From the NCBI GenBank assembly GCA_031266915.1, contig JAISAB010000002.1, positions 12,738 to 76,737 on the forward strand: DNA of 64,000 nucleotides, in the 5' to 3' direction. How positions within the stretch are numbered: position 1 is the first letter of the stretch; every line of letters begins with the position of its first letter. This DNA comes from Rickettsiales bacterium. GTDB taxonomy: Bacteria > Pseudomonadota > Alphaproteobacteria > Rs-D84. The translations under genes were made by a program, and so were the position numbers. The notes below the pieces were generated by a model that was not told where the DNA came from, searched no databases, and was given only the letters and a program-made list of their open reading frames with translations. Below, one piece after another: positions 4,416 to 32,210 of the stretch.

Positions 4416-4504
4416 AACAAACATCCACTTTAGTTACCCGAAAAAATCCCTTGTAGATGTTTCTACGCAAGGGGTCCGCCCGTCGTTACGGGTGTTTAGA
4501 GATT

Positions 4505-4851: not shown

Positions 4852-5394
4852 ATGAAAAAAATTGACTTTATTATAAGGGCCGCTGCTCCGGCGGACGCGC
4901 TGCCGACGATACGGATTGGCATCAAGGGCTGGCGGTACGCATACGGAAAAATTATCAGCGAGGGGCGTCTGCGCGAAAACGAGGCGCGAAAAATGTCGCC
5001 TGAGAACATCATGCGGGCGACCGAAGACATCGCTGGCGGCGTTGGCATTCGGCTGGTCGCAACCGACGCGAACGGCAAAGTATTGGGATTCAAATTTAAT
5101 CAGCCGGACGATGACGGCGAATGGCGCGGCGGCGGGACATATATTGACCCGGAATATGTCGGCATGGGAATCGGTCGTGCATTGTTTGTCGAATTTGCGC
5201 GCCGATTGCGCGCGATGGGCAAAGAAAAATTCTGGGTCAGCTGTATGACCGATAATAAATCCATGGATTTTTACAGGAAACTTGGCGGCAAAGTAATAAA
5301 AGAATATCCGTATGAAAAAATGGAAAACAAATCGCTTTCGGAATTGAAGTTCGAGGTCAAAGGTTTCTTCGATAGACATATAATGAAAAAATAA
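4852..5394 (+). CDS. GNAT-family N-acetyltransferase
   Basis: Acetyl-CoA-binding-like motif (VGMGIGRALFVEF) and size typical of GNAT enzymes; start taken at MKKIDF (ORF tool start 4837). Confidence 0.6.
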   Translation: MKKIDFIIRAAAPADALPTIRIGIKGWRYAYGKIISEGRLRENEARKMSPENIMRATEDIAGGVGIRLVATDANGKVLGFKFNQPDDDGEWRGGGTYIDPEYVGMGIGRALFVEFARRLRAMGKEKFWVSCMTDNKSMDFYRKLGGKVIKEYPYEKMENKSLSELKFEVKGFFDRHIMKK

Positions 5395-8543: not shown

Positions 8544-11203
8544 AAAGCAACATCTTCTGCGCAAGCAATCCGGCAAGGCTGATTGACGCCTTGTGGGAAA
8601 TCATAAAGCAGGGCGGGTCGGACTTTTCCGACGACATTATATTCCTGCCGTCGCGGCGCGCTGCGCGCAGCGTTGAAAAAATGCTGGTTGAAAAATCCGG
8701 CGCCGCGGTATTGCTGCCTACGCTGGTGGCATTGGGCGAGGGTGCGGACGAAGACGACGATGACGTCGTCCATTCTGATGTTGTGTCGAATACCGAGCGC
8801 GTCGTCGTTCTGGCGAAACTGCTGAGCGCGGACGCGAACATACGGACGATTTCGAACGCGCTGCCGATTGCGCGCGATTTGACGCGTATGCAGGATTACC
8901 TGGAAAACGAGGGAATTGCCGCCGCCGCGATTGACTGGCCGGCGCTGGTCGATGAAAAGTACGCAGCGCATTTTCAGAAAAAGGCGGAATTTTTGAAATT
9001 ATCCGGCGCGTTCCTGTCTAACATATTTCCCAACAAAATCACCGAAACTCAAAAAAGAAACGCCGACATCCGCGCATGGATTAAATCCGAAATACTAAAT
9101 AATAAATCTAAAATCATTGTCTGCGGATCGACCGGCAGCGTACCGGCGACCGCCGACTTGATGGCCTATGTCGCGGGCATGTCCAACGGCTATATCATTC
9201 TGCCGGGCAAAATTAATTGCGGCCCCGGCGAATGGCCGATGGACGGCGGATTCAACGCGTGCAATCCGTACCATTGCGAAAAAATGTTCCTGGACCGGAT
9301 AAGCGTCGCGCCGTCTGACGTTCAAATTATCGATACAGGCCCGTCGAACATGGATTTCCTGAACGCTGCATTTTCAAATTCGGTTAACGGTTCACGGTTC
9401 ATGGTTTACGGCACGCAGTTGGTCGAATGCGCGCGCGAAAGCGAAGAGGCATGGTGCGTCGCCGAAATTGCTGCCCGCGCCGTGGCAGACAACAAAACCG
9501 TTCTGGTTATAACGCCCGACGCCGCCGGAAACCAGCGCATTGCCGCGGCGCTGAGCCATCGCGGCATAGCGGCCGACTTTTCGGGCGGAAAAAGCGGCGC
9601 CATGACGCTGGCGGGACGCGCGCTGTTGAATCTGTTCGACGATTGGATAGAGGATAAAAATTCGTCCGCATTCGACGGTTTGTATAAACGCAACGATTCC
9701 AATTTGTTCAAAACGTTGGTTGAGATTGTTGAAACAATGCCCGATGTTCTGTCGCCGCGGTTCCAATTCGATTCCGATGAATCGGCCGTCGTCTGGGACG
9801 CGCTGGAAAAGACGTCCGACGCATTGTCAAGGAACGGAATCGCGCTGACATTGTCCGACGCGCGCGCGGTGGTTGCGGACGCGCTGGCCGGCGCGACGGT
9901 CCGCCCGCCGATGAACGACGGCGCGGCCGTCTGCGTGCTGGGGACAATCGAATCCAGAATGCAAAGCGCCAATGTCGTCGTCCTGACCGGCTTGAACGAA
10001 GGGATGTTTCCCGCGCAAGGGTACGAGAATTCGTGGCTGCCGCGCACTATGGCGCAGAAAATCGGATTGCCGCCGGCGGACAGAAAGGTGTCGCTGATGG
10101 CACTGGACTTTATGAATCTGTCCTGCGGCGCGGAAGTTTACTGGCTGCGCAGCAAGACCGCCGGCGGCAGCCAGACCACCGAGAGCCGGTTTCTTTCAAG
10201 AATACAAGTCGCGACAAAGGTCGCAGATCGCAGAGCACAGAGCGAAGGTTTCGCCGCTTCGCGGCAGAGCGTAGAGCGCAGGTCGCAGGTGGAAGGTGTT
10301 GAACCACCTGCGCACTGCGCACTGCGACCTTCCACCTTGCTGCAAGCGGTGCGGGCCCGCGACGAGGTCGAATACAGGCCGCTGGATTATTCGCCGCCGC
10401 GCATTCCGGCCGACCGCAGCGACGTCTATGTGACCGAACTGGAATTGCTGATTCATAATCCTTATGCTTTCTATGCGCGGCATATATTGCGTCTGCGCCC
10501 GTTGGACGATTATTGGCAGGAACCCGATGCGCGCGACTTCGGCAATCTGGTGCACGGCGTGATAGAAGAATGTTCAAAGTTCAAAGTTCAGAGTTCAGAT
10601 GATTTGATAGAAATGATGGACAAACGCGCGAAGCAAATATTGCCGGCGGGCAGTGCCGTATATCATTTCTGGCACAAGCGCTTTGTCGAAATCGCTCCGG
10701 CTGTCGAGGCGCTGCTGCGGGAATCGCAGAGCCTGAACCGGCAGCAATCAGAAATCGACCTTTGTACGACCATCGCGGGTCGTCGCGTCCGTGCGCGCGC
10801 GGATATGGTTTATTACAAGCAATTTCCCGATTCTGCGGAACCGATTACCGTTGCGCTGGACATCAAAACGGGTGCAGTCCCGTCAAGAAGCCAGCTAGAG
10901 CAGGGCAATATGCCGCAATTGCCGCTGGAGGCGCATATGATTCAATCAGGCGGATTCGCCCAGGGGTCGGGGCCCCAGGTTCAAAGCCCGAATGTCGTCA
11001 TGCAGTTTCTGCAACTGAAAAACAATAACGTAAAGCTGATTGAATACGACGCGGACGCGACGCAAAAGATGATTGATGCCGCCGTCGACAAAGTATCACA
11101 GCTGTTCGGTCGATATTCGAATGATGGCGAGCCGTATGAATACTACGAAACGTCCGACCCAAAGTATAAGGTCTATGACGACCTGGCCCGCGTTGACGAT
11201 TAA
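8534..11203 (+). CDS. addB: AddB-like double-strand-break repair nuclease/inactive-helicase subunit, carrying an in-frame palindromic-element insertion
   Basis: N-terminal …IFLPSRRAARSVEKML… and C-terminal PD-(D/E)xK region (ADMVYYKQ…DIKTG), typical of alphaproteobacterial AddB. Confidence 0.6.
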   Translation: MPVKSNIFCASNPARLIDALWEIIKQGGSDFSDDIIFLPSRRAARSVEKMLVEKSGAAVLLPTLVALGEGADEDDDDVVHSDVVSNTERVVVLAKLLSADANIRTISNALPIARDLTRMQDYLENEGIAAAAIDWPALVDEKYAAHFQKKAEFLKLSGAFLSNIFPNKITETQKRNADIRAWIKSEILNNKSKIIVCGSTGSVPATADLMAYVAGMSNGYIILPGKINCGPGEWPMDGGFNACNPYHCEKMFLDRISVAPSDVQIIDTGPSNMDFLNAAFSNSVNGSRFMVYGTQLVECARESEEAWCVAEIAARAVADNKTVLVITPDAAGNQRIAAALSHRGIAADFSGGKSGAMTLAGRALLNLFDDWIEDKNSSAFDGLYKRNDSNLFKTLVEIVETMPDVLSPRFQFDSDESAVVWDALEKTSDALSRNGIALTLSDARAVVADALAGATVRPPMNDGAAVCVLGTIESRMQSANVVVLTGLNEGMFPAQGYENSWLPRTMAQKIGLPPADRKVSLMALDFMNLSCGAEVYWLRSKTAGGSQTTESRFLSRIQVATKVADRRAQSEGFAASRQSVERRSQVEGVEPPAHCALRPSTLLQAVRARDEVEYRPLDYSPPRIPADRSDVYVTELELLIHNPYAFYARHILRLRPLDDYWQEPDARDFGNLVHGVIEECSKFKVQSSDDLIEMMDKRAKQILPAGSAVYHFWHKRFVEIAPAVEALLRESQSLNRQQSEIDLCTTIAGRRVRARADMVYYKQFPDSAEPITVALDIKTGAVPSRSQLEQGNMPQLPLEAHMIQSGGFAQGSGPQVQSPNVVMQFLQLKNNNVKLIEYDADATQKMIDAAVDKVSQLFGRYSNDGEPYEYYETSDPKYKVYDDLARVDD
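10217..10340 (+). repeat. Palindromic element of about 125 bp (terminal inverted repeat AGGTCGCAG…CTGCGACCT) inserted in-frame in addB; RPE-like
   Basis: Near-identical copy at 47946..48079 inside xerC/D; open in several frames on both strands. Confidence 0.8.
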
Positions 11204-11312
11204 AAATCAAATTCTATGGACATCTGCTTGCATTAACTGCCGGTCATGTACCAGTATGTACACTCCCTATGGTTAATGCTGCGCATCTGCCTCATATAAT
11301 TTGATTTTTTAT
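11204..11312 (+). repeat. Post-stop-codon element family B (terminal inverted repeat AAAATCAAATTCTATGG…; core CATGTAC-N6-GTACAC; T-run); a partial second copy follows to about 11332
   Basis: Copies also after fadD, yebC, secB and the 37467 gene; flanking stems covary. Confidence 0.7.
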
Positions 11313-11329
11313 GGGCATCTGCTTGCGTT

Positions 11330-11437
11330 AAACACTAGTGTATAGTTAATAGTCATTAGTCAGTAGTCATTAGTGAATGTGTCGCGCCTTTGGCGCGATG
11401 ACTTTATTAACTATAGACTATTGACTGTGCACTATCG
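11330..11437. repeat. TAGTNNN-heptad long hairpin element with central GC hairpin (gtgtcgcgcctttggcgcgatgac)
   Basis: Arms tagtcat/tagtcag/tagtcat/tagtgaa and their reverse complements. Confidence 0.7.
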
Positions 11438-11695
11438 TTTACTTTCAATGCATTCTTCCCATTTTTTGTTGACGCACTTTTTTGTCCCAAGCAGACCCGT
11501 GGCCGTCAAGCATTGTACAATCATGCCGGATTCGCATACGTTGCTGGCGCATTTCCTGAACAATGCGTCGTCCAGATTTGGATAGCATGATTTCATGGCG
11601 CCAGTCGAAATTAGTTCGTTCGGCGCCGGGCTGTTCGTTTGCGGCGCGGCCCAGACGGCCGACGACGAAAATAAGAGAAAAATTAAAAATATCAT
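11432..11695 (-). CDS. Small secreted cysteine-rich protein (87 aa, signal peptide, 6 Cys)
   Basis: Signal peptide MIFLIFLLFSSSAVWA; preceded by the conserved structured leader. Confidence 0.5.
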   Translation of the reverse strand: MIFLIFLLFSSSAVWAAPQTNSPAPNELISTGAMKSCYPNLDDALFRKCASNVCESGMIVQCLTATGLLGTKKCVNKKWEECIESKR

Positions 11696-13914: not shown

Positions 13915-15495
13915 ATGAATATGTTTCAATTGCTGGAAAAGACGACCGGACAGTATCCGAATAATCTTTTCCTGGTGCGCGAGGGCGTGAATTACACGGA
14001 CTTTGTGGATTTGGTGAAAAAACGCGCCGCCGTTCTGGACGGCATGGGCGTCAAAAAGGGCGACGTTGTTGGCATTCTGGCCCATAATATCCCCCAATTC
14101 CCGACCACTTTGTTCGCGATTTGGTATCTGGGCGCGCAATGCCTGCTGCTGGATACTAATCTGACCCCGTTCGAATACAACAACATGGCTGAGCTGACCA
14201 GCTGCAAAATCGTGTTCGCAGAAAACTCGTTCTTTTTCAAGACGAACAAAATCAAGTTCGTGGACATAACCGCCCCGGACGGCGCGGCGAACCCCGATTT
14301 AAAGGCCGCAGCCGTCGAGGCGTCCGACATCGCGACCCTGTCGTTCACATCCGGTTCGACCGGCACGCCCAAGGTCGTTCCACTGACGCACTTTAACTTG
14401 GTTGAATGCGCAAATTCGCTGGAAGACATGAACCGATGGATTAACCCGGGCGATGTCTTGTACGGATTCCTGCCGATGTACCACGTGTTCGGATTCGCGG
14501 TCGAAATCCTGGCGACGCTGCATTACGGCGCCGGGGTCCTGCTGCAGCCGACTGTCAACCCCAAGGACATCATGGATGACTTCAAGACATTTCGTCCGCA
14601 TGTCATTCCGGCCGTTCCGCGTTTGTGGGAGGTATTCCGCAACAAAATTATCGACAATATCAAGTCCCAAAAGAAATGGTGGCTGGTTTCGTTCGTACTG
14701 AAATACGGGAAATCGATGAAAAAAATCGGCTTGGGCTTTCTGGTAAGAAAGGTCCAGGGTCAAATTCTTGGCGTTTTCGGCGGACGCGCGGCGTTGCTGA
14801 TTGCGGGCGGCGCCGCCACCAAGCCTGAGGTCGAAACATTCTACGAGCGCCTGGGGCTGACGTTTATCCAAGGCTATGGCCTGACAGAAACGGTAGGACC
14901 AATTTGCATTTCCAAACCGACAAAAAAACGCTATCCTTTCGCGTTCGGCGGGCCGATAACGAACAACGAATGCGACATCCGTGACAAGAACGACGACGGC
15001 GTCGGCGTGCTGTGGCTGCGCGGGCACCAGGTGTTCGGCGGATATCTGGACAACCCGGACGTGAACGCAGAAGTGTTCGACGAAAAGGGATTCTTCAACA
15101 CAGGCGACATGGTCAGCATGGACCCGAACGGAGAGCTGCATTTCGCCGGCCGCAAAAAGCAGGTCATCGTTCTGGATTCGGGCAAGAACGTTTATCCCGA
15201 CGAGCTGGAGGGATTGTACATAACCATTCCGGGCGTCAAGAATGTCGCCGTATTTGAGCACAAGGTCAAAAACAAAACCGTGTCCTATGCGGTCTTCAGC
15301 GTCGACGACAAGATGACGGTCAACGAGTTGGCGTCCGCCGTCGCGTCAGCCAACAAAAAGGTCGCCAGTTACAAGTGGGTCACGCACTTTGCCATGACGA
15401 CCGAAGACCTGCCGCTGACCAGCACGCAAAAGGTCCGCCATCATGTCGTGCGCGATAAGCTGGTTGCCGGCGATTATCCGACAAGAAAAGAGTAA
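13915..15495 (+). CDS. Long-chain fatty-acid-CoA ligase (AMP-binding family, FadD-like)
   Basis: AMP-binding motifs TSGSTGTPKVV, YGLTET, GDMVSMDPNGELHFAGRKK. Confidence 0.75.
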   Translation: MNMFQLLEKTTGQYPNNLFLVREGVNYTDFVDLVKKRAAVLDGMGVKKGDVVGILAHNIPQFPTTLFAIWYLGAQCLLLDTNLTPFEYNNMAELTSCKIVFAENSFFFKTNKIKFVDITAPDGAANPDLKAAAVEASDIATLSFTSGSTGTPKVVPLTHFNLVECANSLEDMNRWINPGDVLYGFLPMYHVFGFAVEILATLHYGAGVLLQPTVNPKDIMDDFKTFRPHVIPAVPRLWEVFRNKIIDNIKSQKKWWLVSFVLKYGKSMKKIGLGFLVRKVQGQILGVFGGRAALLIAGGAATKPEVETFYERLGLTFIQGYGLTETVGPICISKPTKKRYPFAFGGPITNNECDIRDKNDDGVGVLWLRGHQVFGGYLDNPDVNAEVFDEKGFFNTGDMVSMDPNGELHFAGRKKQVIVLDSGKNVYPDELEGLYITIPGVKNVAVFEHKVKNKTVSYAVFSVDDKMTVNELASAVASANKKVASYKWVTHFAMTTEDLPLTSTQKVRHHVVRDKLVAGDYPTRKE

Positions 15496-15600
15496 ACTTT
15501 ACTATCGGTTCGCGTTGCGGGTGTTTTCGAACATTCATGTACGTTTTGTACACTACATGGTCGAAAACACCCGCAGTCGGCACAATATATGAAAATGATT
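15496..15600 (+). repeat. Divergent member of post-stop element family B (stem cgggtgttttcgaac / gtcgaaaacacccg around CATGTAC-N6-GTACAC)
   Basis: Same conserved core with covarying flanking stem; a T-run follows. Confidence 0.6.
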
Positions 15601-15633
15601 TGGTTTTTTAAGATGTGTATATAAAATACTTTC

Positions 15634-19371: not shown

Positions 19372-20088
19372 ATGTCGGGACATTCAAAATGGCATAACAT
19401 TATGCATAAAAAGGGCGCCGCCGACGCGGCCCGCAGCGGCTTGTTCACCAAACTGGCGCGCGAAATCACCATGGCGGCCAAGCTGGGCGACAAGAACCCT
19501 GACAACAATCCGCGCCTGCGGCTGGCGATTTTAAACGCGCGCAAGAATTCCATGCCGAACGATAATATCAAGCGCGCGATTGACAAGGCCTCGGCTGGCG
19601 GCATGGACAATTATTCGGCCGTTCGGTACGAGGGGTACGGTCCGGGCTCGGTCCCTGTTATAGTCGAGGCGCTGACCGACAACCCGCGCCGCACCGTGCC
19701 GGAAATCCGCAGCATATTCAACAAGAACGGCGGCAGCATGGGCGAGGAAAATTCCGTATCGTTCCTGTTTACCCGCGCGGGCCAGATTTTCTATGCGCCG
19801 AATGCGGCGGCGAATCCCGACGACATGATGATGGCCGTGATGGAGGCCGGCGGCGACGATGTCGAATCGTCCGAAGACGGATATATCGTAACGACCAAGC
19901 CGGACGATTTCATGGCCGTTCAAAAGGCGCTGGCGGACAAGCTGGGCGACCCCGAGCGGGCCGAGCTGACCTGGATTCCGAACATGCCGGTCGATTTGGA
20001 CGACGAAACGTACGCGCGGCTGGAGAAACTGGTGGACTTGCTGTCTGATAACGACGATGTACAAAAGGTAATAACGGCAGCGGCGTAA
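19372..20088 (+). CDS. yebC: YebC/PmpR-family transcriptional regulator
   Basis: MSGHSKWHNIMHKKG… canonical N-terminus; start ATG at 19372. Confidence 0.85.
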   Translation: MSGHSKWHNIMHKKGAADAARSGLFTKLAREITMAAKLGDKNPDNNPRLRLAILNARKNSMPNDNIKRAIDKASAGGMDNYSAVRYEGYGPGSVPVIVEALTDNPRRTVPEIRSIFNKNGGSMGEENSVSFLFTRAGQIFYAPNAAANPDDMMMAVMEAGGDDVESSEDGYIVTTKPDDFMAVQKALADKLGDPERAELTWIPNMPVDLDDETYARLEKLVDLLSDNDDVQKVITAAA

Positions 20089-20210
20089 AATTAAATTCTA
20101 TGGATGTCTGCTTGCATTAACCGTCGGGTCGTGTACGTCTTTGTACACTCCCCTTTGGTTAATGCGGCGCATTCATCTCATATAAATTTAATTTTTTAAA
20201 ATATAAAAAA
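20088..20210 (+). repeat. Post-stop element family B copy (terminal inverted repeat AAATTAAATTCTATGG…CTCATATAAATTTAATTTTTT; stem gcattaacc/ggttaatgc; core CGTGTAC-N6-GTACAC)
   Basis: Seen directly; begins at the yebC stop. Confidence 0.7.
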
Positions 20211-20220
20211 AGGTGTATCA

Positions 20221-20628
20221 ATGAAAATAGTGCAAAAAATAACAGACAAACTGTTTACAGCCGGTGGAAGAATCATATTACCGCCAAGGCGGACCGACCC
20301 GAACAAGCCGACCGACACACAAGCCATGTACGAAGACCAATACGGCCGGGATATTACGGCGGCTTTGGATTCGCACCACAATCTGGACGCCGCGGGCGCT
20401 GTCGGCGAAGCTGTCAGGATATACACCGGCGGTTACAAATTGACGGACAAACGGCGCGATGTGTTTCCGTTCTATATCCTGTCGCCAAGCAGATTGAATT
20501 TTGGCAATCAGGATATTACGGACCGGGTCACGCAGAATTTTATAACTGAAAAATATGCCGAAGTAATTAACAGCGCCGCATATAGGTTTCGCGTAAGCCT
20601 TGGTCAGAATACCAGGGAAGGCCGATAG
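20221..20628 (+). CDS. Hypothetical protein (135 aa)
   Basis: Shine-Dalgarno aaggtg; intact ORF between yebC and ruvC; no recognised domain. Confidence 0.4.
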   Translation: MKIVQKITDKLFTAGGRIILPPRRTDPNKPTDTQAMYEDQYGRDITAALDSHHNLDAAGAVGEAVRIYTGGYKLTDKRRDVFPFYILSPSRLNFGNQDITDRVTQNFITEKYAEVINSAAYRFRVSLGQNTREGR

Positions 20629-20638
20629 GGGTTATGAT

Positions 20639-21124
20639 ATGACGCGCATTTTGGGGATTGACCCCGGGCTTTTGCACACGGGATGGTCTGTGATTGATTC
20701 GGCCGGCAACGCGCGGGCCTATGTCGCCAGCGGCGTGATTCTGCCGCCAAAGACCGAGGAGCTGGCCGTGCGCCTGGCATTTATTTTCCGCGAAGTGTCG
20801 AAATTGCTGGATATATGGAAACCTGACGAATGCTCGGTCGAAATCATATTTGTGAACAAGAATCCGAAAACGACGCTGGTTCTGGGCCAGGCGCGCGCGG
20901 CCGCGCTGATTGCCGTCGCGGACAAGGTTATCCCGGTTTTCGAGTACGAGCCGAACAAGATAAAAAAAGCGCTGAGCGGCGCGGGCCACGCCGACAAGGA
21001 ACAGATTTATAAAATGGTGAAGCTGCTGCTGCCGGTGGCCAATCCGAAAACGTCGGACGAAAGCGACGCGATTGCCATCGCGCTGGCGCATAGTAATATG
21101 AGCAGGGTAATAGTTAGTAAATAG
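20639..21124 (+). CDS. ruvC: Crossover junction endodeoxyribonuclease RuvC
   Basis: MTRILGIDPGLLHTGWSV…; catalytic D/E pattern; …AIAIALAH… C-terminal motif. Confidence 0.85.
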   Translation: MTRILGIDPGLLHTGWSVIDSAGNARAYVASGVILPPKTEELAVRLAFIFREVSKLLDIWKPDECSVEIIFVNKNPKTTLVLGQARAAALIAVADKVIPVFEYEPNKIKKALSGAGHADKEQIYKMVKLLLPVANPKTSDESDAIAIALAHSNMSRVIVSK

Positions 21125-21212
21125 TGATTAGTGCTTAGTTGATAGTGCATAGTTAATTAGTTCACTAATCACTATAAACTATTCACTATACACTACCAAC
21201 TATTTGTTTTTC
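21104..21212. repeat. TAGTNNN-heptad hairpin element between convergent ruvC and the 21211 gene
   Basis: tagtgat tagtgct tagttga tagtgca tagttaa … cactaat cactata aactatt cactata. Confidence 0.7.
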
Positions 21213-21609
21213 AGTTTCCGCACAGCGTGTGCGTGCCGGACGAATCGCGGACCTGGATGCATCCGTTTTGAAACCATATCTTTGCGCGTCCGGCCGGGGC
21301 CGCGGCCGATGGTTCCGATGTCTTGACGGTGTCGAAACGCGCGTCGTCGCCGGCCGCGACGGTGCCTGTATCCGTACCGACGGGAATCCGCGCGATACCT
21401 AATGTTCCACTTGTTATATTCGCCGCATTCGTCTGGTCCAAGTTCTGAACGTTACCGAGGCCGACCTGGGCCGCCGTCACGTTATGCGGATTGTCAGTTC
21501 GCGCGGTGTGCGCGTCGACATAGCTCTTGCCGGCAATTTCCGCCAATGCCGGCGTCGCGGCAAAAAAACATAATAAAAACATAATTCGTTTTTTCATATT
21601 CACAGCCAT
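21211..21609 (-). CDS. Secreted tail-fibre-like protein, short paralog (signal peptide + 'EIAGKSYVD…DNPHNVTAAQVGLGNVQN…' N-module + small Cys C-terminus)
   Basis: N-module about 80% nucleotide-identical to the start of the upstream gene 21600..22475; motifs recalled from phage tail-fibre N-terminal domains. Confidence 0.55.
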   Translation of the reverse strand: MAVNMKKRIMFLLCFFAATPALAEIAGKSYVDAHTARTDNPHNVTAAQVGLGNVQNLDQTNAANITSGTLGIARIPVGTDTGTVAAGDDARFDTVKTSEPSAAAPAGRAKIWFQNGCIQVRDSSGTHTLCGN

Positions 21610-22475
21610 ATGTCCGACAGCATATTTATCATGTCGCCGCCGGACAGGTAATAGACTTCGTCATTGCAGCTGTTGACGCAATTGGTATAGCTGTTGCCGC
21701 CAAGCTGGTTCCAGTTTGAATTTGTCGGGTAATACCATCGGGACGTGCGGCCGTATTTGTCCGTTGCGCGAATCCAGCAATATCTGCGGGCGTGGTATTC
21801 CATAGTCTGGTCAATCGCGACTTCTTCGATAACGCGTCCGGTGCCGCCGGGCCGCGTGGTCGACGAGCATGTCGCGACCAGGAAAAATTTCTGGCCCAGA
21901 TGCGCCGCCAGCGCCCCGGCGCACAAATTCGACGTGCAGCTTTTGCCGCAATACTCGCCCCGATACAAACTAACGCTTACCAAGGTCCCGTTCGGCCCCA
22001 TTACCAATCCGGCGGTTTCGCCCGCGACGCCGCACATCAGTCCCAGCTCGTGTTTGCTGACGTAATCGACCGGCTGTCCGGCGCCGTTTTCGCACAGGGC
22101 GGGGGTCGTCACGCCGCCGCTGCGAACATAAAGGCATCCGTTTTCATACCATACCTTATCGCGGCCGTCGGCGGGAAGGCGCCAGGGCTCGGCCAATTCG
22201 ACGGTGTCGAACCGTGCGTCGTCGCCGGCCAAGACAGTGTTTTCATTTGTTCCAATGGGAATTCGCGCGGCATCCAATATGCCGGCGGTTATGTTCGCCG
22301 CGTTCGTCTGGTCCAAATTCTGGACGTTTCCCAGACCGACTTGGGTCGCCGTCACGCTATGCGGATTATCCGTGCGCGCGGCGTGCGCGTCGATGTACGC
22401 GTTGCCGGCGACATCAGCCCTGGCGTTTGCAACGCATGCGATTATGCAAATAAGACCGGCGGCGATGGATTTCAT
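21600..22475 (-). CDS. Secreted tail-fibre-like protein with Cys-rich C-terminal domain (long paralog)
   Basis: Signal peptide MKSIAAGLICIIACVANARA; same N-module as 21211; ATG at 22475 chosen (ORF tool start 22505 is GTG). Confidence 0.6.
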   Translation of the reverse strand: MKSIAAGLICIIACVANARADVAGNAYIDAHAARTDNPHSVTATQVGLGNVQNLDQTNAANITAGILDAARIPIGTNENTVLAGDDARFDTVELAEPWRLPADGRDKVWYENGCLYVRSGGVTTPALCENGAGQPVDYVSKHELGLMCGVAGETAGLVMGPNGTLVSVSLYRGEYCGKSCTSNLCAGALAAHLGQKFFLVATCSSTTRPGGTGRVIEEVAIDQTMEYHARRYCWIRATDKYGRTSRWYYPTNSNWNQLGGNSYTNCVNSCNDEVYYLSGGDMINMLSDIWL

Positions 22476-22919: not shown

Positions 22920-23216
22920 ATGAAAGATATGCCAAAAGACCAAATGGAACGCATCATGCACAAGTTGTATCACAAACGCAACTTTCTGCTGCGCGCGTTC
23001 GTAATCAACCTGGTTCTGATAATAGCGGTGTGGGGACTGTCCATGACGGATTTCTATGCGAATATGGCGGGACACTTTATGCACTGTCCGGCGGCGCAGG
23101 CGGAAACGTATACCATGGATTTGCTGGGCGCGTGGAAAATCGCGGGCGTTCTGTTCTTCCTGGTGCCTGCGCTGGCCGCATGGTGGGAACTGCATGCATG
23201 CCGGAAACGCCAATAG
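22920..23216 (+). CDS. Small hypothetical membrane protein (2 transmembrane helices)
   Basis: Two hydrophobic helices; intact ORF with upstream AT-rich promoter region. Confidence 0.45.
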   Translation: MKDMPKDQMERIMHKLYHKRNFLLRAFVINLVLIIAVWGLSMTDFYANMAGHFMHCPAAQAETYTMDLLGAWKIAGVLFFLVPALAAWWELHACRKRQ

Positions 23217-23312
23217 TTATTAGTGCATAGTGATTAGTGCTTAGTTTATAGTACATAGTTAAAATTTACTAAACACTAAGCACTATAAACTATGCACTAC
23301 TCACTAATGACT
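23214..23312. repeat. TAGTNNN-heptad hairpin element (7 heptads per arm) between convergent genes
   Basis: tagttat tagtgca tagtgat tagtgct tagttta tagtaca tagttaa | tactaaa cactaag cactata aactatg cactact cactaat gactatt. Confidence 0.75.
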
Positions 23313-23637
23313 ATTTTCTTATCGTCACCTTTGCCACGGCGTCATAGCCGAAGTATTTGTTTATCTTTGCCGCGATGTCGTCTTTCATATAGGATAATTG
23401 CAGCGCGAACGCCGGATTCGCGGCGCGCACGGCGATATTGAATTTCTTGTCGCGGGTCTTGGTTATCGCGGCCAGCCGCGCAATCGACGCGATGTCGCCG
23501 CCCATGATTTCATCCCAGCGATTGCTCAAATCAGCGTCTGATGCGCGGACGCCGAACAGCCGCATCAATCCCCCGAACGTCGACGCGATGGTCTGGGGGC
23601 GGGCAGTGCGTTTGTTAAGATTAACAGGATTGGCCAT
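23311..23637 (-). CDS. DUF721/DciA-like protein (putative helicase-loader family)
   Basis: …RWDEIMGGDIASIARLAAI…FNIAVRAANPAFALQLSYMKDDIAAKINKYFG…VKVTIRK fits the DUF721 pattern. Confidence 0.5.
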   Translation of the reverse strand: MANPVNLNKRTARPQTIASTFGGLMRLFGVRASDADLSNRWDEIMGGDIASIARLAAITKTRDKKFNIAVRAANPAFALQLSYMKDDIAAKINKYFGYDAVAKVTIRK

Positions 23638-23645: not shown

Positions 23646-23740
23646 CATTAGTTTATAGTGATTAGTGCTTAGTTTATAGTGCATAGTTAAATAGCTTACT
23701 AATCACTAAGCACTATTCACTATACACTACAAACTAGTGT
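23646..23740. repeat. TAGTNNN-heptad hairpin element between dciA-like gene and mltA
   Basis: tagtttatagtgattagtgcttagtttatagtgcatagtt … aatcactaagcactattcactatacactacaaactag. Confidence 0.7.
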
Positions 23741-24832
23741 CTAGTAAGGTTTCACATACACGTATTCTTTGGGCATCAGGATGTACATCTCGCCCTGGGA
23801 ATGCTGGCCTTGGGCGTATTTGTACGCGTCGTCGCCCTTGCCGAAGAATATGTCCGCGCGTATCCAGCCGCGGATGGCGCTGCCGGTGTCTTGGGCAATC
23901 ATCAGCCGGCGGAACTTGCGCCCGTCGGATAGGTTCGTGTTGACATATACGGGCAGCCCCAGCGTATACAGCGAATCGTCCATCGCGATGCTGCGGATTT
24001 TCGACAGCGGCGTGCCGATTTTGCCAATCACGTCCGGCGGCACCGACACATAGAAATACACATAGCGCGGATTGTTGTAAATAACCTCGCGCGCAAGCGC
24101 CGGGTTCTGGCGTAGATGCTGCCATACGGCCTCGGACGAATATCCGTTTGCCGGGCGGATGTTTTTCGCCTTCAGCTGTTCCCCAATCGATTTGAACGGC
24201 ATGTCGTTCACGGCCGCGAAGTTCAATTTGACCAGGGTGCCGTCTTCCAGCTGCAGCATGCCGCTGCCTTGGATTTGGATGTTCTGAACATCGACAATGT
24301 TCGCCCAGTACAGAACTTTGCCGATTTGGTTGTTCACGATTGTCTTCTTGTCCACGCCTTTGTACGCTCGCCCGTCAGTCGGAATGCCCATCAGGGGTTC
24401 GTTATACTGTGTGCTTTTGCTTTTCGAGGCAGGGATAATCGGCGAATAATATCCTGTGTATGTTCCTTTGTCTTTGCCGGCATCGTCATGGATTTTATAC
24501 GGCTGGAAGTGCGATTCGAACCAAGCGCGCACGGTCGCGGTGTCCGCGGACGCCGCGGGCAGCATTTTGCACTTTTCTTCGAACAGCGCCGCGTCAGGCA
24601 CGACCCGGCCGACATATTGGATGCGGGCCTTGCAGCTGTTGCGGAACGACTGCAGGGCGTATCGGACGTCATCCTCGCGCCAGCCGGGCAGCTGCGAGTA
24701 CGAAACCGCGCGCAGATTGGACGGCACGGTCGACCGGTTGCCTGTATGATGTGTCGGGCTCGGCGCAGGCCCGCTTAAATCGCAAGATGCCAAAAACAGG
24801 CATAGCACGCCAAGTATCGATATTTTTTTCAT
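23741..24832 (-). CDS. mltA: Membrane-bound lytic murein transglycosylase A (MltA-like lipoprotein)
   Basis: Lipobox LFLASC; MltA/3D-domain motifs (…QDTGSAIRG…); size about 360 aa. Confidence 0.7.
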   Translation of the reverse strand: MKKISILGVLCLFLASCDLSGPAPSPTHHTGNRSTVPSNLRAVSYSQLPGWREDDVRYALQSFRNSCKARIQYVGRVVPDAALFEEKCKMLPAASADTATVRAWFESHFQPYKIHDDAGKDKGTYTGYYSPIIPASKSKSTQYNEPLMGIPTDGRAYKGVDKKTIVNNQIGKVLYWANIVDVQNIQIQGSGMLQLEDGTLVKLNFAAVNDMPFKSIGEQLKAKNIRPANGYSSEAVWQHLRQNPALAREVIYNNPRYVYFYVSVPPDVIGKIGTPLSKIRSIAMDDSLYTLGLPVYVNTNLSDGRKFRRLMIAQDTGSAIRGWIRADIFFGKGDDAYKYAQGQHSQGEMYILMPKEYVYVKPY

Positions 24833-24899: not shown

Positions 24900-25331
24900 A
24901 TGCCAAAATTTAACATCATTCAGCAATTCTTGAGAGACATCTCGTTCGAGAGCCCGAATGTTCCGGAATTGTTCTTCAAACAAGACAACGGCAACGCCAA
25001 GCTGGAAATCAGCATCGACGTTCAAATCAAGGGCGCCGAGAACAATCTGTTCATGGTCGATTTGATTACCAAGGTTCATTCCAAGCTGGAGGCGGACGGC
25101 AAAACGATTTTCCTGATTGAATCCAGCTATGCGGGCCTGGTTCAGATGGAAGAGGAAAAGGACGAGGAAGTCAAAAAGCGCACCTTGCTGATTGATATTC
25201 CGAAGATGCTGTTTCCATCCGTGCGTGCGCTGGTCGCCAGACTGACGTCCGAATCTGGATTTCCGACGTTCGCGATGCAGCCGGTTGATTTCCAGGCGCT
25301 GTATGAAGAAAAGCAGAAGCAGGGACAATAA
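24900..25331 (+). CDS. secB: Protein-export chaperone SecB
   Basis: MPKFNIIQQFLRDISFESPN… typical SecB N-terminus and acidic C-terminal tail. Confidence 0.85.
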   Translation: MPKFNIIQQFLRDISFESPNVPELFFKQDNGNAKLEISIDVQIKGAENNLFMVDLITKVHSKLEADGKTIFLIESSYAGLVQMEEEKDEEVKKRTLLIDIPKMLFPSVRALVARLTSESGFPTFAMQPVDFQALYEEKQKQGQ

Positions 25332-25437
25332 ATCAAATTCTGCGGGTTCTTGTCGCGTTTGCTGATTCTCATGTACGTTATGTACACTTCGAATCATCAA
25401 ACACTTCCAATAACCTCGCATAATTTGATTTCTTAAA
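25329..25437 (+). repeat. Post-stop element family B copy after secB (core TCATGTAC-GTTATG-TACACT; stem gtttgctgattc/gaatcatcaaac)
   Basis: Seen directly. Confidence 0.65.
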
Positions 25438-25462
25438 AAAACCGGCGAAAGCCGGTTTTTTA
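25434..25462. terminator. Bidirectional Rho-independent terminator (aaaaaaaccggcgaaagccggtttttt)
   Basis: Perfect hairpin flanked by A- and T-runs. Confidence 0.8.
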
Positions 25463-25554
25463 AATAGCAAATATCAAATAGCAATTTGGTGCAGAATTGG
25501 GCTATAACACCATAAACGGCACCCCATTTGCTATTTGATATTTGCTAATTGCTA

Positions 25555-25720
25555 TTTTTCTTCTGGACACGGGCGTCACAAAGGCGCACAATGCCATCAC
25601 AGGACCGCTAATCCAAACCATCCTTGGATTGTACATAGTTCCCGTTTTCAAAAATCCCGCATTTCCGCCGTCTCTTATTTCCCATTTATTGCCTAATCTA
25701 AACCATGGTTTTTATATCAT
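25555..25720 (+). promoter_or_regulatory. 165-bp duplicated promoter/5'-UTR block (second copy 63805..63965) containing TTATTGCCTAATCTAAACCATGGTTTTTATATC (-35/-10-like)
   Basis: About 90% identical to 63805..63965; the TTGCCT-N17-TATAT motif is also at 44290 and 44395; upstream of a secreted tail-fibre-like gene. Confidence 0.55.
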
Positions 25721-25743
25721 TCTTGGCAATGGGGAAAAGAGAG

Positions 25744-26698: not shown

Positions 26699-26822
26699 GA
26701 AATAGTCTATAGTCGATAGTCATTAGTCTATAGTGATTAGTATTTAGTTGATAATGCATAGTTGACTAGTTTACTGAACACTAACGACTATTGACTATAG
26801 ACTAATGATTATTGACTACACC
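26699..26822. repeat. TAGTNNN-heptad hairpin element
   Basis: tagtctatagtcgatagtcattagtctatagtgattagtatttagttgataatgcatagttgactagtt … and reverse-complement arm. Confidence 0.7.
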
Positions 26823-26863
26823 GTGTGGTTTTGTGATATGATGTTCCAACGGGGGGCGTCTGT

Positions 26864-28049: not shown

Positions 28050-28185
28050 GGATAGCATATAGCGGTAGTTGATAACCATTAGTGATTAGTGCATAGTGTT
28101 TAATTATTAGTAAACTAGTTAACTATTCACTATAAACTAATCACTATTAACTACTGACTAATGACTATTGACTAACAGTTGTTTT
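28050..28185. repeat. TAGTNNN-heptad hairpin element between MFS gene and recA
   Basis: …cattagtgattagtgcatagtgtttaattattagtaaactagttaactattcactataaactaatcactattaactactgactaatgactattgacta. Confidence 0.7.
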
Positions 28186-28223
28186 CTCTGTACCATTTGT
28201 CTTAAGAAAAAAGAGGAAAGGTT

Positions 28224-30252: not shown

Positions 30253-31260
30253 ATGCCGGCAATATCGGTCGTGATACCTGTATATAATGTTGAAAAATAC
30301 CTGCGGCGCTGTTTGGACAGCGTCGCGGGTCAGACTTTCTCGGACTGGGAGGCGATTTGCGTCAACGACGGCAGCCCTGACAACAGCGCCGCGATACTGG
30401 CCGAATACGCCGCACGCGACAAGCGGTTCAAAGTCATCACCAAGGAAAACGGCGGCCTGTCCGACGCGCGCAATGTCGGCACGGACGCCGCGACCGGCGA
30501 CTATCTGATTTATTTGGATTCGGACGATTTTATTCATCCCCAGACGATGGAATTTTCCTATGCGCTGGCGCAGCGCGACGGTTCCGACATCGTATCCTGG
30601 TACAAGGATAAGTTCTTTCGCCCGCAGTTGCTGATATGGTACAAGCTGGGGTTCGACATCGATTCCATGATGCCGCGCCGAATCAAAAAAAGGTACAAGC
30701 TGGAAAAAATCAGGACATGCGTCACGGACGATGTCTTCGCGCATACGACCGAGCGTCCGAACAGCAGCATCAAATGGCCCATCAAGCATTTTTACGTATG
30801 GCGCCATTTAATCCGCCGCGAATTCATCAAAGGAATAAAATTCATCAAGGGAATCACTTTCGAGGATTTTCCCTGGTGGTCCGAGGTCATGCTGCACCAT
30901 CCGCGCGTCACGATTACCAAGCTGCCGTTCCTTTATTACTTTCCGAACCTTAATTCCATCGACATGGCGTCCAACGAGGTCAAGAAAGTGCGCAACTGGA
31001 TAATCGGTTTGGAATCGTCTTACAATATGTACAGGGCACGGGCGACCGATTATGAAAAGATCGCATGGGAACGCGAAGTCATGTGGCCGGTCATCGTCTA
31101 TCAGATTTTTCGCAAGGTAAGATATATCAAAAAGTCGGCGGATGCCGAATTTATCAAAGAGACGTTGCTGCGTTTCAAAGAAATGGGCATGTTCGACAAT
31201 CCACAGACCTGGCGGGCAAAAATATATCAGCGCAGAATTTTGAAGTATATCAATCAATAG
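30253..31260 (+). CDS. Family 2 glycosyltransferase
   Basis: ISVVIPVYNVEKYLRRCLDSV…NDGSPD…YLDSDD GT2 motifs. Confidence 0.8.
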   Translation: MPAISVVIPVYNVEKYLRRCLDSVAGQTFSDWEAICVNDGSPDNSAAILAEYAARDKRFKVITKENGGLSDARNVGTDAATGDYLIYLDSDDFIHPQTMEFSYALAQRDGSDIVSWYKDKFFRPQLLIWYKLGFDIDSMMPRRIKKRYKLEKIRTCVTDDVFAHTTERPNSSIKWPIKHFYVWRHLIRREFIKGIKFIKGITFEDFPWWSEVMLHHPRVTITKLPFLYYFPNLNSIDMASNEVKKVRNWIIGLESSYNMYRARATDYEKIAWEREVMWPVIVYQIFRKVRYIKKSADAEFIKETLLRFKEMGMFDNPQTWRAKIYQRRILKYINQ

Positions 31261-31352
31261 TCATTAGTGAGTAGTGCATAGTTTATAGTGATTAGTGAAT
31301 TAGTTAACTATGCACTATAAACTAAGCACTAATCACTATGCACTAACTATTA
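31256..31352. repeat. TAGTNNN-heptad hairpin element between convergent glycosyltransferase genes
   Basis: tagtcattagtgagtagtgcatagtttatagtgattagtgaattagtt | aactatgcactataaactaagcactaatcactatgcactaacta. Confidence 0.7.
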
Positions 31353-32210
31353 AATATTGTATTCCCGGAATCGCGATGGGATTTTTGTGACCAGTTTGAT
31401 GCCAAACATAAACGGCTTGTTCCATGCATATGGCGGTCGGAATACCGTCTGCATCGCGCGCGCCAATTTGATATAGGACGCGCGGCGGCGCTTTTTCCGT
31501 GTGATGATAAAAATCGTTTCGGCGCGGCGCGCCAGATGTTTCCGCCAATTCGGATTCCGGTCGCCGATTTTGTTTCGAAGCATCTCGTAATCAACACTGC
31601 CGAAATGCAACAGGTGCAGATTTTTATCAATATGGAAATTGTGTCTTTTGACGCTGTGAAATCCGCTGCCCCAGCGCAGCGGTTTCGCCAAGACCACAGG
31701 CTTGGTATAGCGCGTCGACAGCAGGGCGTATTCGCGCTGCGCCAGGAATGGCTCGTTCGCGTCCAATGGATATTCGCGATTCAAATCCTGACCGACGTCC
31801 AGGCCCAGGCCTGAAACAGAGGTTTTAATGTCCGCGTCCGACAAATATTGTTTCAGCGTCTTGCCAACCGCCGGGTTGACGACCAGGAATTCGTCGCAAT
31901 CGCATCCGATAACCAAGTCATATCCCTGGGCAAACAATTCCGTGGCCCGTTTTGACAGCAATCTGATGCGGTGTTTGTCGCCGGCCCGGCGGGACAGCCC
32001 GTCGATATGTTCCATCTTGGTTATATGGGCGTTTCGGGCGCCGCCTGGGATTTTCTGGTCCAGACCGTCAAGGTAGATGTACAGATTTTCTTCGCCCAAT
32101 TGTTCGCCGTAATAGGCAATCCAACGGTTCAGAAAGAACTCGTCATTTCGCGCCATAGTTATCGCGGCGATTCTATTCCCGCGCCGACGGGAATCCTTTG
32201 TATTTGACAT
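31350..32210 (-). CDS. Putative glycosyltransferase (GT2-like fold)
   Basis: Within the glycosyltransferase cluster; IAAITMARNDEFFLNRWIAYY…YLDGLD resembles GT2-type N-terminal motifs (weak). Confidence 0.45.
   Translation of the reverse strand: MSNTKDSRRRGNRIAAITMARNDEFFLNRWIAYYGEQLGEENLYIYLDGLDQKIPGGARNAHITKMEHIDGLSRRAGDKHRIRLLSKRATELFAQGYDLVIGCDCDEFLVVNPAVGKTLKQYLSDADIKTSVSGLGLDVGQDLNREYPLDANEPFLAQREYALLSTRYTKPVVLAKPLRWGSGFHSVKRHNFHIDKNLHLLHFGSVDYEMLRNKIGDRNPNWRKHLARRAETIFIITRKKRRRASYIKLARAMQTVFRPPYAWNKPFMFGIKLVTKIPSRFREYNI

Follow-up and report, generated by a model that had tools for sequence, protein, structure and literature searches.

The locus behind yebC raises a simple question. 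A hairpin-forming sequence of about 110 nucleotides starts at the stop codon of this gene and recurs behind other genes of the same stretch of DNA (the window, by which we mean all 64,000 nt analysed), and it could be a signal that ends transcripts, an RNA element kept for the sake of the gene, or a piece of DNA that spreads by itself. The sequence-only reading had proposed five copies of a post-stop-codon element, with a TGTAC-N6-GTACA core inside covarying stems and a T-run at the 3' end, and had interpreted them as elaborate intrinsic terminators, 3'-UTR RNA elements or protein-binding palindromes. In our analysis the window holds six copies of the family, all on the + strand and each placed where a + strand gene has its stop codon, with the following features (CM, covariance model score).

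1342-1449, + strand: copy 6, type II, directly 3' of the stop codon of the ABC-ATPase ORF 631-1344; CM 24.9 bits, E 0.011.
11202-11309, + strand: copy 1 (addB), type I; CM 79 bits; the stop codon ends at 11203.
11298-11338, + strand: truncated 5' part of a further copy, adjoining copy 1 and 68% identical to 11203-11243 (repeat family D13).
15492-15609, + strand: copy 2 (AMP-binding ligase), with degenerate ends and an N5 tip; CM 33.4 bits; the stop codon ends at 15495.
20086-20197, + strand: copy 3 (yebC), type I; RNA fold -46.5 kcal/mol, z -10.4; CM 73.5 bits.
20129-20152, + strand: apical module of copy 3, TCG-TGTAC-GTCTTT-GTACA-CTCC.
25328-25433, + strand: copy 4 (secB), type I, with an N5 tip; CM 76.9 bits; the stop codon ends at 25331.
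25436-25462, + strand: canonical secB terminator hairpin AAAAAAACCGGCGAAAGCCGGTTTTTT, intact, 3' of copy 4 and outside the element.
37881-37987, + strand: copy 5, type I; CM 84.3 bits; the stop codon ends at 37889.

All five copies proposed earlier are real and lie where they had been placed, while the sixth, at 1342-1449 on the + strand, had been missed. The genes named upstream were confirmed as encoding an AddB-like protein (PDDEXK_1), an AMP-binding ligase (the acyl-CoA ligase of that reading), YebC and SecB; for the supposed secreted-protein gene, 37437-37889, a signal-peptide-like N-terminus was found in a product that has no Pfam match. Likewise, the co-orientation of these structured 3' elements with the upstream gene holds in all copies. 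Placement after the stop codon needs a slight change, since the copies starting at 11202, 15492, 20086 and 25328 begin at stop codons (the TAA of yebC is 20086-20088), whereas the copy at 37881 contains the stop codon of ORF 37437-37889 in its left arm.

Every window copy folds as a long hairpin with the tip TGTAC-loop-GTACA, or TGTAG...CTACA in the 1342-1449 copy, and the z-scores of the five originally noted hairpins range from -4.7 to -10.4 against shuffles. The pattern TGTAC-N3-9-GTACA matches five times in the window, always on the + strand, against 0.11 expected. In the yebC copy, which has the outer arms AAAATTAAAT/ATTTAATTTT, the boxes TTCTATGG / CTCATATAA and the 3' end TTTTTT, the tip consists of a 5-bp stem and a 6-nt loop, placed on top of a conserved asymmetric internal loop. 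Some details of the earlier description apply to part of the copies. The N6 spacing of the core becomes N5 in the copies at 15496 and 25329; the conserved terminal repeats (for example, TAAAATTAAATTCTATGG / CTCATATAAATTTAATTTT) are absent from the 15496 copy; and the clean T-run is broken in the 25329 copy, which ends TTTCTT. Where present, this T-run belongs to the terminal inverted repeat, being complementary to the 5' A-run. The ABC-ATPase copy has its boxes swapped between arms (5' TATAAC ... ATTCTA 3'), and its tip, TGTAG-GTTCA-CTACA, is a compensatory change with respect to TGTAC/GTACA.

A pattern scan recovered the same architecture from other genomes, at 81 loci where we would have expected roughly 5-10 by our own estimate, and a covariance model yielded 112 matches in these loci plus six in the window. 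Carriers, which belong to many bacterial orders and hold many copies, include gut Alphaproteobacteria, Rickettsiales-like and Legionellales metagenome-assembled genomes, Kangiella and Brucella/Ochrobactrum (L008, L068 and L069), with K. japonica and B. pseudogrignonensis as cultivable members; in viral contigs the pattern scan gave no match. The source genome of the window lies outside the species representatives behind the 81 loci, and BLAST of the window against these loci gave no match at 1e-10. As to known RNA families, Rfam gathering scores were reached by tRNAs and the tmRNA only, over the window and 18 loci, and a permissive Rfam scan of 20060-20230 returned, at E <= 10, a single 6.5-bit chance match. 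No description of the family was found in the literature on MITEs, stop-codon and Legionella repeats, Bru-RS and REPIN/RAYT. This family of hairpin repeats of about 110 bases is apparently undescribed so far, with the proviso that Bru-RS and QMITE2 are known to us by description only. Bru-RS1 and Bru-RS2, from the work of Halling and Bricker of 1994, are reportedly palindromic Brucella repeats of 103-106 bp.

Three features are shared throughout the family, namely, a basal box pair, an apical stem-loop, TCA-TGTAC-N5T-GTACA-CTCC, and TA(A) at both ends. The box pair, TTCTRY/RYATAA with a C-T mismatch, may sit on either arm, which defines types I and II, and the ends of the element read TAAA-n-TTCTRYGG ... 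CRYATAA-n-TTTA. The tip profile of the family is T98 C95 A100 [TGTAC] N5 T93 [GTACA] C95 T95 C72 C83, with spacings of N5, N6 and N7 and with an internal loop below it that is both conserved and asymmetric (flanks TCA versus CTCC). This central tip is the only sub-palindrome of the element, the ends being simple arms. Some copies lack the tip (ligase copy of L089) or the mismatch (secB copy of L089).

The covariation noticed between the stems of different copies proved genuine. Across 87 aligned matches, of which 86 rows are distinct, pairing holds in 92.9% of cells; shuffles give 65.6% and slid controls 32-55%. Double-sided changes number 694 against 205 and are seen in 25 of 29 pairs. Within some genomes the outer repeat varies in sequence from copy to copy and keeps its complementarity. 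The shape of the hairpin is mainly what the family conserves. The swap that relates types I and II belongs here too: in the folded stem it is the same duplex turned round, whereas on linear DNA it is not a simple operation. A stem with arms that match each other at each site could also arise if the end of the gene itself were copied in inverted form at insertion; in the window genome, however, unrelated genes are followed by copies with the same outer arms, and for this genome we rejected the idea.

Position and polarity were evaluated in 80 arrays with usable flanks. In 57 of them a stop codon of a same-strand ORF falls within 40 nt on either side of the 5' end, and in 42 it falls between -5 and +8 nt (35 TAA, 5 TAG and 2 TGA); an opposite-strand ORF stop abutting the 3' end of the element was seen in none of the 80. 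Polarity at stop codons is 42 to 0 in the sense direction. This preference goes together with one for a DNA strand. In the window, where gene numbers are about equal on both strands, six out of six copies are on the + strand (Fisher p about 0.008), along which the cumulative GC skew rises; elsewhere, 22 of 23 additional arrays lie on the strand of the first array of their locus, with about 41% of ORFs on the opposite one (P = 8e-5). Measured along the element strand, GC skew amounts to +0.127 in ORFs of that strand and to +0.021 in those of the other strand, the latter value being only marginally above zero (p = 0.044); by our own decomposition this leaves a replication component of about +0.07, replication direction being read here from GC skew in short loci rather than from mapped origins. 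Elements sit, then, on the G-rich strand within a locus, and this strand bias exceeds what gene orientation alone explains. Apparently, insertion takes place in one direction, exactly at stop codons, and behind genes of a single DNA strand.

Presence and absence of the element could be followed at the four genes addB, ligase, yebC and secB, whose neighbours are syntenic housekeeping genes. All four sites are empty in L083, L084 and L085, those of yebC and secB are empty in L087, and some of the four are filled in L086 and L089. L085, from contig OZ246409.1 of a related assembly, has no copy. By gene, addB has an orthologous copy in L089 and none in L083-L086; the ligase site is filled in L086 and L089 and empty in L083-L085; and the yebC site holds type I in the window and type II in L086. 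Occupancy does not track YebC similarity. At these orthologous sites it is the element alone that comes and goes, rather than gene plus element.

At secB, the element separates the stop codon from the canonical terminator, which is intact, and TAA is present at either junction, the second one (25435-25437) just beyond the 3' end of copy 4. In the empty sites of L084 and L085, the stop codon is directly followed by a matching CCGGC-stem terminator at the same position. The empty site thus reads TAA|AAAACCGGC... (terminator) and the filled one TAA[element]TAAAAAAACCGGCG..., so that the retained terminator defines the insertion point. TAA at both junctions, as read by eye, recurs in seven of nine copies of the window lineage (window plus L086). 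A clear TAA duplication is confined to this lineage; elsewhere the ends read only TA...TA, in the same way as repeat ends would, and because TA is self-complementary these may be either a target duplication or the ends of the inverted repeat.

These same junctions bear on the elaborate intrinsic terminator that had been among the readings proposed earlier, which we consider quite improbable. It draws on the run of five or six T residues that follows the long hairpin in five of six window copies, and on yebC, which has no other terminator before the next gene. However, secB keeps its canonical terminator 3' of the element, a terminator hairpin for the convergent gene is also found downstream of the ligase copy, and the T-run is missing from most relatives in other genomes. 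Moreover, instead of a G+C-rich stem followed by an unpaired U-tract, as expected of an intrinsic terminator, the stem beside the T-run (AAAATTAAAT/ATTTAATTTT) is made of A and T only, with the T-run itself paired to the 5' A-run. A simple terminator scan flagged no element ends, although this is a weak test, since it also misses the secB terminator, whose A- and T-runs pair. The element is not primarily a terminator, and termination is at most a local by-product.

We favour, with a probability of roughly 0.5, the view that the element is a dispersed, non-autonomous mobile hairpin of the MITE/REPIN kind, moving as a folded single strand next to TA(A). In such a cycle, an enzyme encoded elsewhere, perhaps of the HUH/Y1 type or another hairpin-specific recombinase, would recognise the fold through its apical stem-loop and mismatched box, and integration would take place next to 5'-TA(A) on the lagging-strand template. 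On that strand, TAA would be tolerated mainly where it ends a gene transcribed in the direction of replication, and this tolerance would account for the position at stop codons as well as for the fixed polarity. After insertion, the element would be co-transcribed as a 3'-UTR hairpin, and the A/T-rich ends of the copies described here could make it a weak hairpin-plus-U-run, with some termination or mRNA stabilisation as a possible by-product. As for the partners of such a cycle, neither solo ends nor longer elements occur in the window; a non-exhaustive look at the loci revealed no parent insertion sequence with the same ends; a Pfam search of ten window ORFs returned housekeeping genes only; the ORFs between the only inverted pair, in L003, are likewise housekeeping genes, with neither RAYT nor recombinase among them; and no transposase or recombinase partner was seen in the window or in any locus. 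Also less easily reconciled with this view are the copies within the tmRNA gene, which follow no stop codon, those without tip or mismatch, and the compensated changes in orthologous copies. A more specific version of this proposal, in which the family forms an unrecognised superfamily of Alpha- and Gammaproteobacteria that homes strand-specifically to TAA stop codons co-oriented with replication, through a single-stranded intermediate and an enzyme reading the invariant tip, is tentative and, as a whole, less likely true than false.

Mobility could also be of the classical cut-and-paste type, that is, a MITE with a TA target, Correia/ERIC or IS630/Tc1-like, inserted as double-stranded DNA either way round, after which selection leaves only those that lie at stop codons and point in the harmless direction. 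This agrees with terminal inverted repeats that are delimited by TA...TA in most copies, with the filled and empty orthologous sites, and with the tandem and nested copies, but we regard it as rather unlikely. Copies within one genome have different, though still complementary, outer repeats, which makes a transposase that reads the sequence of terminal repeats improbable; selection would have to be very strong to yield 22 of 23 arrays on one strand within loci, besides the polarity of 42 to 0 at stop codons; and no parent insertion sequence was found. Doubtful to a similar degree is the opposite view, that a 3'-UTR RNA element was selected first by the host, whether through protection of the upstream mRNA from 3' exonucleases, RNase III processing or a protein that binds the tip, and spread only secondarily. 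Its position between stop codon and terminator means that the element is transcribed with the gene, and the fixed sense orientation and the conserved asymmetric internal loop under the tip would suit such a role, as would the divergence of orthologous copies, in which 31 compensated pairs stand against 23 broken ones and which suggests a constraint at the level of the host, beyond selfish spread. An RNA function does not explain, however, why there are no copies behind genes on the other strand, why close relatives lack the element at the same genes, or why copies within the tmRNA gene are antisense to it. In addition, the sense strand has the weaker fold in 96 of 109 copies with RNA parameters and in 102 of 106 with DNA parameters, mostly owing to the conserved C-T versus A-G mismatch and to the A-C beside the tip. 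Nor are G-U pairs enriched on the sense strand (199 G-T wobble pairs, versus 236 on the antisense strand), and such similar counts single out no folding strand.

Two further readings start from parts of the element. The tip TGTAC-N6-GTACA could be a duplex operator, like the TGTA-N8-TACA sites of dimeric regulators (CRP/FNR or NtcA type), that the repeat disperses, and its 5-6-5 inverted repeat is invariant across phyla; the earlier idea of a protein-binding palindrome survives to the extent that the conserved tip could bind a protein. Nevertheless, spacings from N5 to N7, flanks that are conserved but asymmetric, copies without any tip, and sites downstream of genes rather than at promoters leave an operator very improbable. 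Even less credible are attC-like recombination sites of integron gene cassettes, despite imperfect hairpins in which structure is kept more than sequence, the placement at ORF 3' ends overlapping the stop codon, and the single polarity with strand-asymmetric folding. The flanking genes are syntenic housekeeping genes and not cassettes, RYYYAAC/GTTRRRY core sites are missing from the five window copies read for them, no integrase was found nearby, and what is present or absent is the element and not gene plus element.

What is new with respect to the original interpretation is a repeat dispersed in many orders and present or absent at orthologous sites. If strand-specific, stop-codon-targeted insertion is true, the family would be a clean natural example of a safe harbour for a selfish element in a compact genome, a bacterial 'stop-codon homing' element that spreads without breaking genes, and it would point to an undiscovered hairpin-recognising enzyme, possibly retargetable, whose motif is conserved across bacterial orders. 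On the practical side, the family populates the 3' UTRs of housekeeping genes in uncultured gut and host-associated Alphaproteobacteria, where annotation should mask or model it, and it breaks metagenome assemblies right behind genes, as in the Logan contig L082, which stops inside the yebC copy. It also provides dozens of natural 3'-UTR hairpins with a stop codon in their base, usable for studying how translation termination is coupled to mRNA fate.

Among known systems, integron attC sites share with the element a structure-defined hairpin with conserved unpaired bases, a single active strand, a location at ORF 3' ends that often includes the stop codon, and a dependence on orientation with respect to replication, but they come with core sites, cassettes and an integrase, and here the element itself comes and goes. 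From classical MITEs the element has the terminal inverted repeats, and no parent insertion sequence was seen in the window or loci. ERIC/IRU and Correia (NEMIS) repeats are closer, being imperfect palindromes of 100-150 bp that have TA at their limits, are co-transcribed with adjacent genes, can overlap ORF ends and keep their hairpin between copies, with no known transposase. Copies of these families are met either way round and on either strand, and the sequence of their terminal repeats is kept. Searches for the ERIC core and for the terminal repeat of Correia elements gave no match at up to three mismatches. IS200/IS605 elements and their miniatures insert in an orientation-specific manner by a short target on the lagging-strand template and are recognised by hairpins rather than by sequence-specific terminal repeats, in both respects as proposed for the element; unlike it, they carry subterminal hairpins, separately at either end, and are not palindromic as a whole, and no tnpA was found here.

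QMITE2 of Coxiella burnetii is a small hairpin MITE of a Legionellales host, mainly found in 3' UTRs, with short REP-like versions, and it extends over the C-terminal 1-10 bp of housekeeping genes, ruvB and recN among them (PMC5896051). Compared by description, it is larger (150-190 bp), has direct repeats of 7-11 nt of variable sequence and, unlike the element, shows both forward and reverse insertions on its ring map (PMC5896051). The last comparison is with REPINs and the REP-RAYT system of Pseudomonas and Enterobacteria (PMC3116915, PMC8266576). In REPtrons, the tetranucleotide GTAG directly precedes the palindrome of the REP sequence (PMC8266576), whereas the element has T98 C95 A100 there, before a stem that starts TGTAC; its ends are not small palindromes, as each REP end is, and its most conserved part is the tip. 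A strict stop-codon position and polarity, a host range centred on Alphaproteobacteria and Legionellales, and the lack, among the ten window ORFs searched and between the inverted pair of L003, of the single-copy tnpA-REP (RAYT) gene that repeats flank in REPtrons also set it apart. On the other hand, REPINs are defined by two conserved inverted ends and a variable spacer in one hairpin with compensatory changes (PMC3116915), and the element shows just this, with double-sided changes in 25 of 29 pairs and 92.9% of cells paired. Like REPINs, it is a non-autonomous sequence of about 100 nt that forms one long hairpin, has conserved blocks separated by a variable, compensating stem, occurs in clusters and tandem arrays, and carries irregularities in its stem, which in REPINs are needed for recognition. 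It may also share with them their proposed movement as single-stranded DNA by means of an HUH/Y1 enzyme encoded elsewhere.

All five elements that the sequence-only reading had reported behind stop codons are present in the window as described, and the pattern TGTAC-N3-9-GTACA occurs there five times, always on the + strand, against 0.11 expected. The core had been given as TGTAC-N6-GTACA, which holds for three copies; a strict N6 spacer catches only these because the copies at 15496 and 25329 carry N5. When folded, every copy gives one long hairpin 104-116 nt in length, with minimum free energies (MFE) of -31 to -46.5 kcal/mol and z-scores of -4.7 to -10.4 against shuffled sequences. In every one of the five, the stop codon that closes the preceding + strand ORF is the element's first triplet, lying inside its left arm in the 37887 copy, and the upstream genes were confirmed as encoding an AddB-like protein (PDDEXK_1), an AMP-binding ligase, YebC and SecB. 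A covariance model made from family members and run unfiltered on the window re-found the five copies at 33-84 bits, together with a sixth that had been overlooked, with the tip TGTAG...CTACA, in which both sides of the apical stem have changed and still pair.

Element copies in the window
1342-1449, + strand: sixth copy, directly 3' of the stop codon of an ABC-ATPase ORF (24.9 bits)
at 11204, + strand: copy 1, after addB
11298-11338: 5' fragment of another copy, abutting copy 1
at 15496, + strand: after the AMP-binding ligase gene
at 20088, + strand: after yebC
at 25329, + strand: after secB
at 37887, + strand: after a putative secreted-protein gene

Scanning one genome per species with the pattern TTCTRYGG-N15-40-TCRTGTAC-N5-6-GTACACT, we obtained 81 loci, against about 5-10 by chance according to our own estimate. 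Uncultured gut Alphaproteobacteria, with multiple copies in each genome, make up most of the hosts; the others are Rickettsiales-labelled and Legionellales MAGs, Kangiella, Brucella/Ochrobactrum, and a few Clostridia, Alistipes and Desulfobacterales bins. The window itself belongs to an uncultured alphaproteobacterium, whose YebC is 79-89% identical to that of 'Rickettsiales bacterium', 'Alphaproteobacteria bacterium' and Candidatus Enterousia MAGs. The pattern had no match in viral contigs, and no Rfam family matched the window, the element or 18 loci. Within the pattern-scan loci the covariance model found 112 copies, and the family matches share an architecture that extends beyond the scan pattern: a 5' (T)AAA-n5-9 arm, a TTCTRYGG box and variable stems; the tip TCA-TGTAC-N5T-GTACA-CTCC; and, on the 3' side, a CC-n-CRYATAA box followed by a complementary arm ending TTT(A). 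Among 87 aligned matches (86 distinct rows), standard pairs occupy 92.9% of cells, compared with 65.6% after shuffling and 32-55% with partners slid; 694 cells changed on both sides, against 205 shuffled, such changes occur in 25 of 29 pairs, and the RY of the box covaries cleanly (AT/AT, GC/GC, GT/AC). Outer arms and inner stems vary between copies of some genomes with complementarity kept, and there the conserved property is shape, not arm sequence. Two types of box pair, with identical tip orientation, were distinguished: type I, 5' TTCTRY...RYATAA 3', and type II, 5' YATAAY...RTTCTR 3', the latter in the window copy at 1342 and in the copies of L086, a locus from another genome.

Position and polarity were counted in 80 arrays flanked on each side by 350 nt or more, using ORFs of at least 100 codons for the same strand. 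A same-strand stop codon lies within 40 nt either side of the 5' end in 57 arrays, and at -5 to +8 nt in 42 (35 TAA, 5 TAG, 2 TGA); in five arrays, an ORF enters the element by about 23 nt and ends at an internal TAA or TAG. Opposite-strand stop codons fall within 40 nt of the 3' end in seven of the 80, and none abuts it. The + strand of the window carries all six copies, against a near-even split of ORFs (25 +, 28 -; Fisher p about 0.008), and cumulative GC skew rises along the window. At multi-array loci, every additional array but one (22 of 23) is on the same strand as the first, whereas 41% of ORFs there are opposite (binomial P = 8e-5). GC skew on the element strand is +0.127 in same-strand ORFs and +0.021 in opposite-strand ORFs, of which we attribute about 0.05 to coding and about +0.07 to replication. 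Thus, G-richness tends to fall on the TCATGTAC...GTACACTCC strand, which, judging from skew, would usually be the leading strand, its sequence being that of the lagging-strand template.

Syntenic loci from other genomes, retrieved via YebC homologues, contain both filled and empty sites.

Element occupancy (YebC identity to the window in brackets)
Window: addB filled; ligase filled (degenerate); yebC filled, type I; secB filled, type I
L087 (89%): yebC and secB empty; addB and ligase, no entry
L083 (88%): all four empty
L089 (87%): addB filled; ligase filled (different interior); yebC empty; secB filled
L084 (85%): all four empty
L086 (84%): addB empty; ligase filled; yebC filled, type II; secB filled
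L085 (83%): all four empty

Occupancy does not track YebC similarity, and the yebC site is type I in the window and type II in L086, which means repeated gain at one stop codon, or precise loss. At empty secB sites the stop codon is followed by AAAACCGGC...GCCGGTTTTTT, a canonical terminator, whereas the filled site in the window reads TAA, element, TAAAAAAACCGGCGAAAGCCGGTTTTTT; the element therefore separates the secB stop codon from the terminator of that gene, and TAA stands at each junction. By eye, TAA recurs just past the 3' end in seven of nine copies of the window lineage. In L089, the ligase copy (5232-5333) keeps the family ends around a different interior without the TGTAC tip, and the secB copy (10454-10558) has perfectly complementary boxes, TTCTATG/CATAGAA, without the usual C-T mismatch.

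An element lies antisense inside a permuted alpha-tmRNA gene in L025 (2245-2370 within 2029-2534, - strand), the gene match covering 506 nt against a 355-nt model, and inside the same gene in L034, L043 and L059, all from gut Alphaproteobacteria, with four tandem repeats in L059. Types I and II stand head to tail behind one gene in L074 (3150-3640, -) and L011 (65-821, -), and one element of L011 is interrupted right after GTACACTCC by a palindromic repeat of another kind; ends or tips may thus be insertion hot spots. The public short-read contig L082 (Logan SRR14710922_96550), which carries the window's yebC, ends 66 nt past the stop codon, within the element, a case of the element breaking assemblies at gene ends.

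Other repeats and one further ORF were seen alongside. A second intergenic repeat, far commoner than the element, forms hairpins from arrays of 7-nt units (TAGTNNN in one arm, ACTANNN in the other).

Other features of the window
7-nt-unit arrays (families D1-D5): 11327-11455, 21113-21216, 23205-23327, 23647-23764, 26701-26839, 28064-28188
7-nt-unit arrays, continued: 31256-31359, 37326-37373, 44156-44281, 47004-47117, 59914-60237, 63717-63787
10218-10302 and 47956-48040: 85-nt repeat, 95% identical
25553-25730 and 63804-63981: 178-nt pair, 88% identity (D6)
21325-21544 and 22200-22419: 220-nt pair, 78% identity (D7), in two adjacent - strand ORFs, probably paralogues
2317-3822, - strand: ORF fusing a T5orf172 (GIY-YIG-like) domain to an EcoRI-type adenine methyltransferase

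The first 85-nt copy lies inside addB, at a stretch of some 32-40 residues that the L084 orthologue lacks, and looks like an in-frame coding-region insertion reminiscent of Rickettsia palindromic elements. The ORF at 2317-3822 lies in a low-G+C segment (0.45) adjoining two tRNA genes (4341-4588), so the region may be an island.

The most economical reading is a mobile, non-autonomous hairpin akin to MITEs and REPINs, to which we give a probability of about 0.5. The element would move as single-stranded DNA and integrate adjoining TA(A) on the lagging-strand template, where TAA would be tolerated chiefly as the stop codon of co-directional genes, a codon that insertion would regenerate. Polarity, stop-codon position and the one-strand rule would be explained jointly. 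No suitable candidate for the recognising enzyme was seen in the window, where 10 ORFs were compared with Pfam, or in the loci. Outside the window lineage, TA stands at the start and at the end of the arms, which, TA being self-complementary, could be a duplication or the repeat ends. A double-stranded, TA-targeting MITE shaped by selection would suit such junctions and is a less likely alternative. Several features point to a folded single strand: shape is conserved over arm sequence, the two strands differ in fold stability, types I and II are one mismatched duplex turned round in the folded stem, in linear DNA a swap of left and right boxes, and below the tip lies a conserved internal loop with unlike sides (T98 C95 A100 opposite C95 T95 C72 C83).

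The elaborate intrinsic terminator proposed earlier fails as a general explanation: secB keeps its real terminator downstream; the stem beside the T-run is A/T only, the T-run being the partner of the 5' A-run; a T-run is missing from most relatives; and a simple terminator scan, weak in that it also misses the canonical secB terminator, did not call the element ends. Behind yebC, where the next gene begins 24 nt past the element, the hairpin and TTTTTT could act as a putative weak terminator. A host-selected 3'-UTR RNA hairpin is a further, less likely alternative to the mobile hairpin. Orthologous-site copies show 31 compensated pairs, 23 uncompensated breaks and 16 one-sided changes still pairing, and the compensated changes suggest some constraint after insertion; variable stems hold 199 and 236 G-T pairs on the two strands, so wobble pairs point to no RNA strand in particular. 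The gene-collinear hairpin is the weaker one with RNA parameters (-40.8 against -47.4 kcal/mol antisense; 96 of 109 copies) and DNA parameters (-22.2 against -26.5 kcal/mol; 102 of 106), mainly because conserved C-T and A-C oppositions become A-G and G-T on the other strand.

Small palindromic repeats at gene ends are a known kind, e.g. REP/REPIN, ERIC, Correia and Coxiella QMITE2, and our literature searches returned no description of this family, of a tip conserved across orders, or of such strict stop-codon and strand rules. The family may include the locally named Brucella Bru-RS and Coxiella QMITE2 repeats. For the mobile hairpin, REP/RAYT biochemistry is the nearest model: there the hairpins are single-stranded, irregularities in the stem are required, and cleavage takes place next to the hairpin (PMC8266576). 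Our family, however, lacks the defining GTAG, and its best-conserved block is the tip, not the ends, although it shows the same design of conserved ends and compensating spacer as REPINs (PMC3116915).
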